Positions 32,384 to 37,521 are shown, numbered from the stretch's first letter. The stretch is DNA of 64,000 nucleotides from Candidatus Eiseniibacteriota bacterium (GCA_963792585.1 CAWBWI010000001.1:1024001-1088000), one strand, 5' to 3'. The notes: a model not told the origin generated them from the letters alone. Program-made: numbers and translations.

Positions 32384-33103
32384 CTACCTGAAGAGTGTCC
32401 TGAGGCTCCCCCAACTCACCGGCAGGATCGGATCGGCCAGCTCACACTCGAATTCCTGGCTGGCGTCGTAGGGCACACCAAAGACCGTCTCCGCGGCTAC
32501 CCAGTTCGGATACCCGTAGTAGGCGCTCCGAAAGGCCGTATCGCACCCCGTCACGGCGGCCGCCGCCAGTCGCCCCATGAATGGCTCGATGGTCCCATGA
32601 TCCCCTGCCTGGGCCCCGAACCAGAGCTGCACGCTTGCGGTCACGGGTACGGAAACCGAAGCCTCGTAGACGAAGATCGGGTAGAACCCATTCTGGCAGT
32701 AGATGAAGGTCTCCCCCGCGAAATCGCCGACCACGTACTCGGCCAGCAGCGCGCCGGGCAAACATCCCGAGTCGTCATAGAATCGGAGATTCCAGGTGCT
32801 CGACAGATGGTGATCGCCGCATCCGTTCCCACCCCAGGAGCCTCCCCACCAGCGCGCCAGCGTGATGAGCCCTGAGTCGACCGGCAAGAAGTCGTTTGCG
32901 AGTTCCGTCTCCACACCGAGCTGCCCGGCGATCTCCGAAGACCCGAGCAGCCCCTCGAGATTCGGCGCTTCGCTCCAGCAAACATCCCGCCCACCGGCGA
33001 GTACATTCGAGCCGCCACCGCCGGCGGAGGGCGGAGACTGTCCGGCCGCAGCCGAACCCAACACTCCGAGACACAGAATCACATAGAGTGTGCGATTCTT
33101 CAT
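32384..33103 (-). CDS. secreted beta-rich protein, tandem paralog 1 (divergent), C-terminal SWGSLRTLFR
   Basis: Signal peptide; shares ETELANDF, LARWWGG, WNLRFYDD, YCQxGFYPIF, DASQEF with the three neighbours. Confidence 0.85.
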   Translation of the reverse strand: MKNRTLYVILCLGVLGSAAAGQSPPSAGGGGSNVLAGGRDVCWSEAPNLEGLLGSSEIAGQLGVETELANDFLPVDSGLITLARWWGGSWGGNGCGDHHLSSTWNLRFYDDSGCLPGALLAEYVVGDFAGETFIYCQNGFYPIFVYEASVSVPVTASVQLWFGAQAGDHGTIEPFMGRLAAAAVTGCDTAFRSAYYGYPNWVAAETVFGVPYDASQEFECELADPILPVSWGSLRTLFR

Positions 33104-33336: not shown

Positions 33337-34050
33337 CTACCGGTAGAGCCCCTTGACGGCGCCCCACGTGGTGTCGTGCGTCGGAACCTCGCCGGCTCCG
33401 AATTCCTGGCTGGCGTCGAACGCGACACCGAACACATCGATGCCGGGCGTCCAGTCGGGATACGAGAAGTACACGCTCTTGAACACCGAGTCGCAGCCGG
33501 TGACGAAGCCAGCGGCAACGCGACCGCACTGCGGCGGGAACACATGGTCGGCAGCCTGCGCGCCGAACCAGTACAGGGTGTTTCCGGTGACCGGGAAGCT
33601 GACGGCAACTTCGTACTTGAAGATCGGGTAGAAGCCGCCCTGGCAGTAGACGTTCGTCTCGTTCGCGAAGGCGCCGAGATACTCGGCGAGCACCGTCAGA
33701 GGAACGCAGCCGCCGTCATCGTAGAACCGGAGGTTCCAGTTCGTCGCGTAGCCGATATCGCCACAGCCGTTGTTGTTCCAGTAACCACCCCACCAGCGCG
33801 CGAGGTCGATCACGTTGTCAGCTGTGAGGAAGAAATCGTTGGCGAGTTCCGTCTCGAGGCCCACGGAACCGATGACTTCCGACGACGCGATGAGACCCTC
33901 GAGGTCCACCGGCTCACTCCAGACGATGTCACGGCCCGAGTTGACGACGTTCTGCGTGCCACCGCCGCCAGCCATGAGGCTGGGGTTGATGGCGAGCGCG
34001 CTGCCAGCGACGACGAAGCTCAACGCCACGACAAAAGCAATCTTCTTCAT
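33337..34050 (-). CDS. secreted beta-rich protein, tandem paralog 2, C-terminal TTWGAVKGLYR
   Basis: GGAGG then MKKIAFVVALSFVVAGSALA signal peptide; near-identical to paralogs 3 and 4. Confidence 0.88.
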   Translation of the reverse strand: MKKIAFVVALSFVVAGSALAINPSLMAGGGGTQNVVNSGRDIVWSEPVDLEGLIASSEVIGSVGLETELANDFFLTADNVIDLARWWGGYWNNNGCGDIGYATNWNLRFYDDGGCVPLTVLAEYLGAFANETNVYCQGGFYPIFKYEVAVSFPVTGNTLYWFGAQAADHVFPPQCGRVAAGFVTGCDSVFKSVYFSYPDWTPGIDVFGVAFDASQEFGAGEVPTHDTTWGAVKGLYR

Positions 34051-34229
34051 GATGAGGGATTCCTCCATTGTCAGGACACGTTTGCACCAAGGTTCGTTAC
34101 CTACAGACGGTTCCAGGTACGCCAAGCCCTGTAACACAGAGCCATCGTCCCCGGTGCACCCCGCATTCGCGGGGTTCGTTCCGTTGGACGGACCCCCTAC
34201 CCCGTCGCCGGATCGGTCTAGGAGATCGC
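34051..34229 (-). promoter_or_regulatory. conserved structured 5' leader, copy A
   Basis: Highly similar to 35095-35276; hairpin ACCCCGC-GAAU-GCGGGGU (34158-34175) inside a larger stem. Confidence 0.65.
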
Positions 34230-34235
34230 GGGATC

Positions 34236-34264
34236 AGTATGGGCCCCGGCGGGGCATTGATCAA
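34236..34264 (-). promoter_or_regulatory. sigma70-type promoter of paralog 2
   Basis: TTGATC-N17-CATACT with an upstream A-tract. Confidence 0.7.
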
Positions 34265-34319
34265 CATATTTTTTCGTTGATATCAGGCAATGAGGGGTGG
34301 TGGGGGCGGATGGGCAAAG

Positions 34320-34347
34320 GGGTCCCTTGCCCGAAGGCAAGGGACCC
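34320..34347 (-). terminator. terminator hairpin after paralog 3
   Basis: GGGTCCCTTGCC-TTCG-GGCAAGGGACCC (cUUCGg loop) followed by CTTT on the minus strand. Confidence 0.75.
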
Positions 34348-34377
34348 GATTGGTACAGCAGCACTTAGACTATCAGA

Positions 34378-35094
34378 CTACCGGTAGAGCCCCTTGATGG
34401 CGCCCCACGTGGTGCTGTTCGTCGGGGTATCACAGTTCGCCTCGAACTCCTGGCTGGCGTCGAACGCAACACCGAACACGTCGATGCCGGGCGTCCAGTC
34501 GGGGTACGAGAAGTAGGCACTCTTGAACACCGAGTCGCAGCCGACGACGCCGCCGGAGGCAACGCGACCGACCTGCGGCGGGAACGCGTGGTCCGCACAC
34601 TGCGCGCCGAACCAGTAGAGGGTGTTCGCGGTCACCGGGACGCTGACTCCAACCTGGTACACGAAGATCGGGTAGAAGCCGCCCTGGCAGTAGACGTTCG
34701 TCTCATTCGCGAAGGCGCCGAGGTACTCGGCAACCGTGCTCAGAGGAACGCAGCCGCCGTCATCGTAGAACCGAAGGTTCCAGTTCGTCCCGTAGCCGAC
34801 ATCGCCGCAGCCGTTGTTGTTGTAGTAACCACCCCACCAGCGGGCGAGGCAGAGGGTGGCATCAGAGGTGAGGTAGAAATCGTTGGCGATTTCCGTCTCG
34901 AGGCCCACGGAACCGATGACTTCCGACGACGCGATGAGGCCCTCGAGGTCGACCGGCTCGCTCCAGACCACGTTACGGCCGGAGTTGACGATGTTCTGCG
35001 TGCCACCGCCGCCCGCCATGAGGCTGGGGTTGATGGCGAGCGCGCTGCCAGCGACGACGAAGCTCAGAGCGAGCACAAAAGCAATCTTCTTCAT
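34378..35094 (-). CDS. secreted beta-rich protein, tandem paralog 3, C-terminal TTWGAIKGLYR
   Basis: Same architecture as paralog 2; ATG at 35094 after GGAGG. Confidence 0.88.
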   Translation of the reverse strand: MKKIAFVLALSFVVAGSALAINPSLMAGGGGTQNIVNSGRNVVWSEPVDLEGLIASSEVIGSVGLETEIANDFYLTSDATLCLARWWGGYYNNNGCGDVGYGTNWNLRFYDDGGCVPLSTVAEYLGAFANETNVYCQGGFYPIFVYQVGVSVPVTANTLYWFGAQCADHAFPPQVGRVASGGVVGCDSVFKSAYFSYPDWTPGIDVFGVAFDASQEFEANCDTPTNSTTWGAIKGLYR

Positions 35095-35276
35095 GATGAG
35101 GAATTCCTCCATTGTCAGCTAATACGTTTCCACCAAGTTTTGTTGCCTTCAGACCGTTCCCAGGCACGCTCAGCCCCGTAACACAGAGCTACCGTCCCCG
35201 GTACACCCCGCGTTCGCGGGGCTCGTTCCGTTGGACTGACCCCCCATCCCGTCGCCGGATCGGTCCAGGAGGTCGC
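35095..35276 (-). promoter_or_regulatory. conserved structured 5' leader, copy B
   Basis: Direct repeat of 34051-34229 with scattered substitutions; hairpin at 35205-35222. Confidence 0.65.
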
Positions 35277-35282
35277 GATATC

Positions 35283-35311
35283 AGTATGCAATCGTCTAAG
35301 GCTGTGGTCAA
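35283..35311 (-). promoter_or_regulatory. sigma70-type promoter of paralog 3
   Basis: TTGACC-N17-CATACT with an A7 tract upstream. Confidence 0.75.
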
Positions 35312-35365
35312 GTTTTTTTATCGTGCAAATCGGGGAATGGCCGCTCTCGGGGTCTGTTTAACAGA

Positions 35366-35395
35366 CGGATCCCCCGCCCGAAGGCAGGGGATCCG
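35366..35395 (-). terminator. terminator hairpin after paralog 4
   Basis: CGGATCCCCTGCC-TTCG-GGCGGGGGATCCG on the minus strand; homologous to the 34320-34347 hairpin with compensatory changes. Confidence 0.75.
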
Positions 35396-35424
35396 CTTGG
35401 TACAAACTAACTTAGAGGATCAGA

Positions 35425-36138
35425 CTACCGGTAGAGCCCCTTGATGGCGCCCCAGGTGGTGCTGTTCGTCGGGACCGGGCCGGCCTCGAACTCCTGGCTG
35501 GCGTCGAACGCGACACCGAACACGTCGATGCCGGGCGTCCAGTCGGGATACGCGAAGTAGACACTCTTGAACACCGAGTCGCAACCGACGACGCCGCCGG
35601 AAGCAACGCGACCGCACTGCGGCGGGAACGCATGGTCGGCAACCTGCGCACCGAACCAGTACAGGGTGTTGCCGGTGATCGGCATGCTGACGGCAGCTTG
35701 ATACGAGAAGATCGGGTAGAAGCCACCCTGGCAATAAACGTTGGTCTCGTTCGCGAAGGCGCCGAGGTACTCGGCAAGCACCGTCAGCGGAACGCAGCCA
35801 CCGTCATCGTAGAACCGAAGGTTCCAGGTCGTCGCGTAGCCGACATCGCCGCAACCGTTGTTGTTCCAGTAACCACCCCACCAGCGGGCGAGGGTGATCG
35901 TGTTATCAGCGCCGAGGAAGAAATCGTTGGCGAGTTCCGTCTCGAGGCCCACGGAACCGATGACTTCCGACGACGCGATGAGACCCTCGAGGTCCACCGG
36001 CTCGCTCCAGACCACGTCACGGCCGGAGTTGACGACGTTCTGCGTGCCGCCGCCGCCAGCCATGAGGCTGGGGTTGATGGCGAGCGCGCTACCAGCGACG
36101 ACGAAGCTCAACGCCACGACAAAAGCAAACTTCTTCAT
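35425..36138 (-). CDS. secreted beta-rich protein, tandem paralog 4, C-terminal TTWGAIKGLYR
   Basis: MKKFAFVVALSFVVAGSALA signal peptide after GGAGG. Confidence 0.88.
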   Translation of the reverse strand: MKKFAFVVALSFVVAGSALAINPSLMAGGGGTQNVVNSGRDVVWSEPVDLEGLIASSEVIGSVGLETELANDFFLGADNTITLARWWGGYWNNNGCGDVGYATTWNLRFYDDGGCVPLTVLAEYLGAFANETNVYCQGGFYPIFSYQAAVSMPITGNTLYWFGAQVADHAFPPQCGRVASGGVVGCDSVFKSVYFAYPDWTPGIDVFGVAFDASQEFEAGPVPTNSTTWGAIKGLYR

Positions 36139-36325
36139 GAGTGGGATTCCTCCAAGCTTTGATGAAAAACCAGGTGATGAGCACCTTTTCACATGTCATG
36201 GACACGGGCGACGATGGGATTCCGTAATAGGGAAACCTCGCCTTGGATCCCTCGCCGAAGCGAGGCCCGCTCTTGTCGATCCAGGGCCCTCCACGCCGCT
36301 CGCCGGAGACGGTATGTTTGGCCCT
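36139..36325 (-). promoter_or_regulatory. structured 5' leader, copy C (diverged)
   Basis: Similar length, TCCGGCGA at the same offset from the -10 box, nested hairpin CCUCGC-UUCG-GCGAGG (36250-36265). Confidence 0.5.
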
Positions 36326-36331
36326 GTACCG

Positions 36332-36360
36332 ATTATGGGACATCGCGCTTCGATAAGCAA
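36332..36360 (-). promoter_or_regulatory. sigma70-type promoter of paralog 4
   Basis: TTGCTT-N17-CATAAT with an AT-rich upstream region. Confidence 0.65.
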
Positions 36361-36477
36361 CGAAATTTCACATATTGTCGTGTCATATCAGGCCATACTC
36401 GGAATTCAACAGTAGTGGCACGGGGAATAGTCGTGGATCTTGCTTGCTTGCAATAGGATATCGATTCGCACGAGGGT

Positions 36478-37521
36478 CTACTCAGCACTCTCCCGGTACC
36501 CAATCTCGGGGCAATCCAGCCCGGGCGGGTGCCCGCCGCGTCGGCATGGAGAGCTCGCGGAAGGGGTGAAGTCACCGGCGGCCGGGTCGGTGAATTGTGG
36601 GTCTGCATTGAAGTTACCGTTGCCGGCGGTCAGGCACCCGGCCAGGTCGTCCCCCCCCGCATTCCCGAATATATCGCAGCAGCGCATGAATACCTTTGCG
36701 GGCGAGCTGCAGGAGAGCGCCTCTCCGGACCGACAAGACGCGATGATAGTATTCCGTATCGTCATCTCTCCCTGGCTCGACCAGATCCCCCCGCTGGATT
36801 CGAGGCCGGCGTTTTCGAAGAACGTCCCCTGGTCCAGCGTGAGGGACGAGTTCAGGCACCAGAGCCCCCCGCCCCGCTTGGCAGTGTTCCGGACGAAGAG
36901 CACATTCGACACCTCGGCAGAGCAGAACGACTTCACGCCGAGCCCGCCGCCGTTGTTGACGGCGGCGTTGTCGATGAATCGCATGTTGATCAGTTTCGGT
37001 GAGGATCTCAGATAGCAGACCATGCCTCCGCCGAAGTGGTCCGAGCGATTGTTGACGAGCCAGCAATCCGCGATCGTCGGGGAGGCGCCCAGGCAGAGGA
37101 TCCCACCACCGTAGTTCGCGGGGAGCCGACCCTCCACGTAACCCCCGGTGATGGTGAATCCCTGAATGCGTGTCTCTCGGCCCTCGCCTTCGTGGATGAA
37201 CAGACCGCGGTGCGGTTCCCCCGGACGGCCCTGACAATCGAGGATCGTCATCCCGGGGCCGCCGCCCCCGAGGAGCACGATGGACTTCCCGCGGAGCTCG
37301 ATGTCACGGTTCCCCGGTCCCACATACGTTCCCGGTCCGACGAGCACGGTGTCGCCGTCGCCGGCCGCGTTGATCGCCTCCTGGATCGTCTGCCGATCGT
37401 CATCGCCCTCGGCATGGACCTTCAACGTCGCTGCCTCGGCCGCGGCGGGAGCAAGAGCCAGCGCTGCGAAGATCAGGGGCGGAATACACTTCCACGGCAT
37501 TCGCAACGCAGGGATCATCAT
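36478..37521 (-). CDS. secreted right-handed parallel beta-helix (pectin-lyase-like / Pmp-repeat) protein
   Basis: TIQEAINAAGDGDTVLVGPGTY, repeated N.A..GGG..C motifs, ADPQF...DF.....SPC; start uncertain (37500-37620). Confidence 0.82.
   Translation of the reverse strand: MMIPALRMPWKCIPPLIFAALALAPAAAEAATLKVHAEGDDDRQTIQEAINAAGDGDTVLVGPGTYVGPGNRDIELRGKSIVLLGGGGPGMTILDCQGRPGEPHRGLFIHEGEGRETRIQGFTITGGYVEGRLPANYGGGILCLGASPTIADCWLVNNRSDHFGGGMVCYLRSSPKLINMRFIDNAAVNNGGGLGVKSFCSAEVSNVLFVRNTAKRGGGLWCLNSSLTLDQGTFFENAGLESSGGIWSSQGEMTIRNTIIASCRSGEALSCSSPAKVFMRCCDIFGNAGGDDLAGCLTAGNGNFNADPQFTDPAAGDFTPSASSPCRRGGHPPGLDCPEIGYRESAE

Follow-up and report, generated by a model that had tools for sequence, protein, structure and literature searches.

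The window analysed here, a 64,000-nucleotide (nt) stretch of DNA from a Candidatus Eiseniibacteriota bacterium (GCA_963792585.1 CAWBWI010000001.1:1024001-1088000), contains paralogous genes for secreted lectin-like proteins, three of which (genes 2, 3, and 4) are each preceded by a predicted leader RNA of approximately 180 nt. These leaders are a real, uncatalogued, and narrowly distributed RNA, probably a stabilising one, whose invariant loop (CCGGCGA) and core are unexplained. Leader 2 (34051..34229; 179 nt), leader 3 (35095..35276; 182 nt), and leader 4 (36139..36325; 187 nt) lie on the minus strand, as do all window features described below. Judging from the DNA sequence, genes 2–4 are each likely transcribed from their own sigma-70-type promoter: TTGATC-17-CATACT for gene 2 (34236..34264), TTGACC-17-CATACT with an A-rich upstream stretch for gene 3 (35283..35311), and a −35 box TTGCTT, 17 nt, and a −10 box CATAAT for gene 4 (36332..36360), all reading TTG-17-CATAMT. 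A consensus promoter scan called only the gene 3 promoter among the three. The leader starts were assumed to lie approximately 7 nt after the −10 box, and the 5′-end positions depend on that assumption.

The leaders in the window were compared with six homologous ones, giving nine leaders from four genomes or contigs: leaders 2–4; leader 5 (gene at G000:C3, 1062691-1063422); G4a and G4b, and G1a and G1b, from two other genera of the same family; and M31, from a metagenome locus (L031) with a similar upstream neighbour gene. All nine have a TTG-17/18-ANNNT promoter, with the gene 4 promoter geometry, a leader of 142–187 nt, and 148–193 nt from the −10 box to the ATG. In all nine, a 5′-end hairpin (P1) is predicted to begin at about positions 1–3, given the assumed start. 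It occupies 34191-34227 in leader 2, 35238..35274 in leader 3, and 36283..36325 in leader 4, with the apex CCGGCGA at 34205-34211, 35252-35258, and 36300-36306, respectively. CCGGCGA is the sole 7-mer common to the nine leaders and stands 22–25 nt from the −10 box in every one, including 25 nt in leader 4 and 24 nt in leaders 2 and 3, in line with the common offset of 23–24 nt given for the shared motif in the original prediction. In a shuffle control with six lineages, no 6- or 7-mer was shared in any of 500 shuffles. Four-fold degenerate sites differ by 36–75% between the genomes, and the identity of the anchored P1 arms falls to 0.23–0.67. G4a and G4b share 67% of the body and 30% of the arms, yet both the pairing and the apex are kept.

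In a sequence-only alignment of the nine leaders, 73% of the P1 cells were paired, and 7 of 14 pairs showed two-sided change. The P1 covariation (0.325) was reached in 7 of 500 shuffles, a control that ignores relatedness, and controls slid along the sequence were 44–58% paired; these pair counts are support for P1, not proof. Leaders 2, 3, and 5 pair at 14 of 14 positions in a single register, with compensations. The first ~40 nt are predicted to fold locally, with 11–14 expected local pairs versus 0–0.8 distal ones, and the sense strand outfolds its reverse complement in all nine leaders. The C-G pair closing CGGC has a probability of 0.78–0.97 in six leaders and 0.08–0.25 in the other three, in which the loop is predicted to be larger and open. 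Reading the apex as a GNRA loop (CCG-GCGA-CGG) was rejected, as this fails in G4a, M31, G4b, G1a, and G1b, which keep the outer register. The homologues thus keep the pairing with changed sequence, and the lack of covariation that had been named as counter-evidence did not appear.

Variation among strains was read from the contig rows listed, leaving out rows of leader-2-type contigs laid on leader 3. At paired positions of P1 and of two further hairpins, P3 and P5, 12 of 13 variants keep the pair, versus 57% expected for transitions; two such variants lie in P1 of leader 3, and one in P1 of leader 4 changes U-G to U-A. By a hand estimate, the chance that 12 of 12 transitions would keep pairs is near 0.001, a statistic that is overstated given that the helix ends were set after the tables had been seen and that some variants equal the paralogue's letter. 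If no RNA element were under selection, the similarity would be a remnant of recent duplication. This holds for leaders 2 and 3 (85% versus 87% at four-fold sites) and is contradicted both by the invariant apex and hairpin across genera, in which the proteins are only 39–60% identical, and by the pair-keeping strain variants, which makes it very unlikely as a general account.

The likeness of leaders 2 and 3 was the starting point of the original prediction, which described the non-coding segments before genes 2 and 3 as highly similar for ~180 nt. Between the −10 box and the start codon, the two segments (34051-34241 and 35095-35288) are 85.6% identical over 194 columns, and the leaders alone match at 156 of 182 positions. 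The similarity was also said to end just after the −10 box. The 17-nt spacers are indeed unrelated (5 of 17 positions alike, versus 10 of 12 in the stretch from −10 to +1), but there is no full stop, as likeness resumes upstream, between the stop codon and the terminator (49 of 63) and from the A-rich stretch to the −35 box (15 of 22). Genes 2 and 3 share 88% DNA identity and differ at 14 of 108 four-fold sites (87% identical). Because the leader identity is no higher than that at four-fold codon sites, the likeness is not itself evidence for selection on the RNA, and the argument that it marks a conserved untranslated region (UTR) falls; on these sequence comparisons, it is a product of recent duplication or gene conversion. 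Leader 4, correctly described as differing in sequence while keeping its length, aligns with leader 2 only at the 5′ hairpin and the Shine–Dalgarno (SD) sequence (z 1.0), even though genes 2 and 4 encode proteins with 90% identity.

In terms of the other helices, P3 lies at 34159-34174 in leader 2 and at 35205..35222 (CCCCGC-GAAC-GCGGGG) in leader 3, and P5 at 34126-34142 and 35173..35189 (UGUUA loop). The motif U(G/A)UUAC occurs at leader position 91–97 in five of the nine leaders. The CCCCGC-GAAN-GCGGGG hairpin of the earlier fold, with its GUCC/GGAC and CGG/CCG inner stem, can pair in both leaders 2 and 3; no strain variants fall within this inner stem, which is regarded as possible. The long basal stem of that fold had to be abandoned in favour of the 5′-terminal hairpin: enforcing it costs 10.1 kcal/mol in leader 2 and 5.4 kcal/mol in leader 3, its 5′ arm forms about 13 local pairs versus 0.8 and 0.1 distal pairs, respectively, and one strain variant breaks it. 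Two more helices considered in leader 3 were discarded, a hairpin P6 broken by both of its two strain variants and a long helix Pa broken by two of four. Overall, the leaders are predicted to be 56–68% paired.

Behind P1, leader 4 contains a second conserved structure. Its body is homologous to those of G4a and G4b (z 9.0 and 7.7, respectively), and the three share a core, located at 36204..36282 in leader 4, with the same order of elements and near-identical spacing. The first half consists of GGAUC, a joint of 6–7 nt, RCGGG, a tetraloop hairpin (UUCG in leader 4), GAUCC, and 2 nt; the second half consists of GGCG, exactly 25 nt with a U(G/A)UUAC-loop hairpin (UAUUAC in leader 4), CGUC, 1 nt, and CCCGU. 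The GGAUC/GAUCC and RCGGG/CCCGU helices cross, and the core is therefore predicted to form either a pseudoknot or two folds that alternate. The original prediction had given too little weight to the invariant CCGGCGA apex and had overlooked this core shared with another genus. In the nested stem originally proposed for this leader, the GGAUC/GAUCC part, which is kept in another genus, stands, whereas the outer GCC/GGC part does not, its bases belonging to the 5′ hairpin. Leaders 2 and 3 retain the tetraloop and UGUUA hairpins and show weak similarity to G4a and G4b (z 3.2–4.8); in G1a, G1b, and M31, conservation is largely confined to the 5′ hairpin, and the body is not kept. No convincing further instance of the core was found among 140 pattern-matched loci.

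Self-cleaving ribozymes of the hepatitis delta virus (HDV) type have a P1 of about 7 base pairs (bp) plus a P1.1 pairing and the helix order P1-P2-P3-P1′-P4-P2′. The core fits this helix order in three of the nine leaders, with crossing helices that lack covariation. That it is an HDV-like ribozyme is nevertheless extremely unlikely: its first helix has 5–6 bp (5 bp with an extension of 0–1), a stable tetraloop stands where the ribozyme loop L3 would be, there is no P1.1-type loop, and no Rfam HDV model matched positions 34000-36500 or four homologous loci. Furthermore, only one G or U stands at the J4/2 equivalent, in place of a strand headed by the catalytic C, which an excerpt of one study places at the first J4/2 position of HDV-like ribozymes (PMC10879173).

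The main rival to a protective role for the leader is that it acts as a sensing switch for a small molecule, an ion, temperature, or a protein, with the crossing helices controlling access to the ribosome-binding site. The order, spacing, and invariant helices of the core are kept in leader 4, G4a, and G4b, even though four-fold sites differ by 39–45% between the leader 4 and G4 genes; an RNAalifold alternative pairs the CUCCCGU strand with the SD region; the SD sequence is predicted to be mostly paired (unpaired probability 0.04–0.51); and leaders 2 and 3 have the UGUUA loop in common with the core. On the other hand, the core is present in only three of nine leaders, with G1a, G1b, and M31 retaining the hairpin alone, its invariant helices lack covariation, the anti-SD pairing is mismatched in leader 4, no terminator is conserved, and the 140 loci yielded no convincing new instance. 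We consider such a switch possible, although clearly the less probable reading. A related and likewise tentative proposal is that the leader belongs to an uncatalogued class of regulatory RNA, in which the CCGGCGA hairpin would recruit a dedicated factor, the pseudoknot core would serve as the sensor, and different leaders on paralogues with almost the same protein would let the cell choose among surface lectin variants post-transcriptionally.

Assembled contigs from RNA libraries bear on the extent of the transcripts, even though contigs cannot show transcript starts or strand. RNA runs made up 18 of the 21 listed runs holding part of the stretch. Over leader 3, the contigs of five studies stop at 35241, 35244, 35245, 35256, and 35263, within the predicted hairpin and 13–35 nt short of the predicted start, so that 147–169 nt upstream of the gene 3 start codon are covered; run X2 has no leader 3 coverage, and a contig from X20, the library type of which is not on record, passes through 35037-35430. 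If colinear, an 871-nt RNA contig with its end at 35245 would cover gene 3 and its leader only. These contigs are a weak hint of a long UTR on gene 3, and transcripts starting close to the start codons, the other outcome named as counter-evidence, were not indicated there. Among 120 homologous proteins, the longest contig exceeds the gene by 150–249 nt in 23 cases, by 0–149 nt in 5, and by 250–449 nt in 6. The contigs with a 150–249-nt surplus may be transcript-sized assemblies, which would fit single-gene transcripts.

With moderate confidence, and ahead of any other reading, we favour an mRNA-protecting leader of the ompA/slpA kind with an added recognition loop at the CCGGCGA apex. Each mRNA of genes 2–4 would carry a leader opening with the predicted hairpin, which would fold while being made, leaving 0–2 free 5′ nucleotides, and would hinder 5′ processing and the entry of RNase E/G or RNase Y. 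Further leader hairpins would hide internal cut sites, so that an abundant secreted lectin-like protein would be made from a long-lived mRNA. A protein or another segment of RNA would likely make contact with the invariant CCGGCGA tip, and the coding regions would have been homogenised recently by duplication or conversion, whereas two older leader types, that of leader 4 and that of leaders 2 and 3, would have been kept. Counting for protection, eleven sister paralogues have also kept a long leader, and their 5′ hairpin bears another loop. The genome has matches to RNase E/G and RNase Y, split over frames (G000:C1:437644-438454 and 527434-528967), which suggests indel errors in the assembly.

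Several observations weigh against this protective reading. The folding z-scores are modest (−1.9, −2.1, and −0.9 for whole leaders and −0.6 to −2.4 for the first 45 nt), RNAalifold gave no consensus structure for the nine hairpins in the sequence-only alignment, and relatedness alone, without structure, can let sequences outdo the shuffle control. RNA-library contigs of low depth run across the gene 2 promoter (33872-34407) and the gene 4 promoter (to 36381), and RNase J was not found in the 84%-complete genome. Finally, plain stabilising hairpins need no fixed loop sequence, and the invariant apex and conserved core are unexplained by protection alone; the apex would need a further cause, most simply a binding partner.

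Known systems resemble the leaders in part. The stabilisers of Escherichia coli ompA and papA and Bacillus subtilis aprE likewise combine a 5′-end hairpin (predicted here) with a long leader on the mRNA of an exported protein. They act through structure and have no sequence relation to the present leaders, in which the apex is invariant across genera. The operator of phage MS2, a hairpin recognised by a protein, is similar in apex shape (a bulge, 2 bp, and a tetraloop) to leaders 2, 3, and 5, G4a, and M31, with a different loop sequence. Passages of a report on E. coli and B. subtilis describe 5′ hairpins as hindering RppH and 5′-end-dependent decay, and the rne 5′ UTR of E. coli contains a hairpin that is recognised by a protein (RNase E) and differs in its loop sequence (PMC3997798). 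A structured 5′ UTR before a surface protein gene, with a strong promoter and paralogous genes, is found in Lactobacillus slpA, as a partial text records (PMC10221546); here, each paralogue has its own promoter-like site and encodes a single lectin-like beta-sandwich with a TWGxIKxLY tail rather than a known surface-layer (S-layer) protein. Of the proposed stabilising or protein-binding element comparable to S-layer or ompA leaders, the conserved, structured ~180-nt leader is upheld, and the comparison itself is the best current explanation.

Two other explanations of the invariant apex were weighed, both, like the duplication and ribozyme accounts, less likely than the switch. CCGGCGA could be bound as DNA by a transcription factor at about +18 to +25, with the hairpin secondary, as its fixed distance from the −10 box and one intergenic copy in genome G030, lying in reverse orientation at the −35 region of a gene for a peptidase-like protein, would allow. 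However, the flanks change as RNA pairs (CCG/CGG, CUG/CAG, and CAC/GUG) with G-U wobbles on the sense strand, and the G030 copy is possibly due to chance, as 1 of 120 viral control loci has the same promoter geometry (25–31 bit scores among 80); the DNA site is therefore unlikely. The G030 copy itself (L238:1468-1540; G030:C201:4725-4786) consists of a promoter-like site and a CUG-A-UCCGGCGA-CAG hairpin in an intergenic gap, with further hairpins but no gene behind, and lies in antisense orientation to the promoter region of a gene encoding a papain-like peptidase; it may represent an independent small RNA or a DNA site, or be due to chance. Alternatively, the apex could pair with the signal-peptide coding region at about +41 and thereby tune translation or decay. 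A 7-nt complement occurs at +41 in four of nine genes and a 6-nt complement at +38 to +77 in three more, but only 5 nt match in G4b and G1b, Val-Ala-Gly codons yield such a complement on their own, and the genome has 65% GC, making this pairing highly improbable.

Searches for known kinds of leader were negative. Rfam 15 gave no match at the gathering score in the window, in agreement with the earlier statement that no riboswitch consensus was recognisable, and by E-value it returned nothing relevant for 34000-36500 and the four homologous loci, the one match (E 5) lying on a terminator. Intrinsic terminators are not conserved among the nine leaders (a U4 run in two and one weak 5-bp candidate in leader 4), nor are upstream open reading frames (ORFs), as upstream AUGs lie at unrelated positions and are missing from three. 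CsrA target leaders carry GGA in hairpin loops, according to an extract of the literature (PMC13443453); such loops were seen in one of the nine leaders, at the SD sequence of leader 4, and csrA is present in the genome. Searches of open-licence full texts gave no relevant paper on the motif, the protein family, or its secretion.

The distribution of the leader is narrow. All nine copies lie ahead of one gene subfamily, and the CCGGCGA-type leader was not found at the other relatives' loci read or scanned. A covariance model (R1) gave four significant matches in its own genome, all training copies, and only training copies below E 0.001 across 35 genomes of the order; among eight weak matches in other genomes (E 0.013–0.082), only that in G030 has the promoter geometry. 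The strict promoter-plus-CCGGCGA pattern occurs in 3 of 206 genomes. A loose version was dropped as uninformative (102 of 131 genomes match), and the hairpin 15-mer alone is common in coding DNA. No relative of the protein was found in viral contigs. In a tree, the CCGGCGA leader type falls on deeper branches, with weak support.

Twelve sister paralogues in the genome have a different leader of ~140 nt, eleven of them with a promoter-like site and a 5′ hairpin lacking the apex. This second leader type (G000:C3:409310-416176, seven genes; C6:729080-733368, four genes; C3:658802-659512) follows a promoter resembling T(G/T)GAC-17-GATACT and includes a small hairpin over the SD sequence; a c-di-GMP-II-GAG match at half the gathering score (E 3.2) probably arose by chance. 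Directly after the stop codon of six of seven array genes (G000:C3:410027-416190) stands TCCGGCGA; the copies share a single origin by duplication, and their placement may therefore be chance. A ~100-nt element with three GTGGCR repeats, two hairpins, no U run, and no Rfam match (G000:C3:413096-413225 and 13 more copies) lies directly 3′ of 14 TWG-tail genes, two of which are outside the protein family's matches, and may represent a further new element, either RNA or DNA. A third upstream segment of ~190 nt, with a TATACT/TATAAT-like box, precedes MKxxGSLR-like paralogues (G000:C1:216554, C1:220250, C3:822775, C3:829193, C4:273534, and C4:283529).

The gene cluster comprises gene 1 (32384..33103), a divergent paralogue (52–54% amino acid identity) without a CCGGCGA-type leader, gene 2 (33337..34050; 237 amino acids), gene 3 (34378..35094; 238 amino acids), and gene 4 (35425..36138; 237 amino acids, C-terminal TTWGAIKGLYR). 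All four encode a signal-peptide-like start and a [ST]WGxxKxLY-type C-terminal tail. Terminator-like hairpins with weak U tails, read from the sequence and uncalled by the scan, follow gene 3 (34320..34347) and gene 4 (35366..35395). Gene callers often place the start at an AUG or GUG overlapping the SD sequence (34051-34070 and 35095-35115), adding 6–9 residues (MEESLIM and VEEISLM). The protein family has 39 matches in the source genome and further matches in all five other genomes of the same taxonomic family; the related loci L041-L044 are labelled Candidatus Eisenbacteria. AlphaFold predicted a lectin- or carbohydrate-binding-module (CBM)-like beta-sandwich for the mature protein of gene 4 with a predicted local distance difference test score (pLDDT) of 93 from a 99-sequence alignment, which was used instead of a shallow-alignment model (pLDDT 48.6). 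The best match of this predicted fold is the Cwp84 lectin-like domain (PDB 4ci7; Z 12.7, root-mean-square deviation 3.2, 166 aligned residues), but the identity is 5% and the domain here is stand-alone; CBM-like sandwiches follow, and Foldseek matches were weak (best template-modelling score 0.43). On this modelled fold, the protein may bind sugar. The tested proteins matched no Pfam model above cut-off (DUF7901 only below threshold) and no relevant NCBIfam family. Genome-wide, 102 open frames in G000 end in [ST]WGx[IVL][KR]xx[YF], likely a short sorting signal by its sequence pattern, and the tested proteins with this tail matched no Pfam or NCBIfam model.

The leaders thus add an RNA motif without an Rfam family from a little-studied uncultured lineage, where they precede genes of a greatly expanded family of secreted lectin-like proteins. 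Their reach is narrow, confined to nine copies before one gene subfamily. If they only stabilise mRNA, they are a modest new example of such leaders that might serve as a tool part. Binding of a partner by the invariant loop or the pseudoknot core would point to a novel RNA-binding factor or ligand and would also explain how near-identical genes have kept different leaders.

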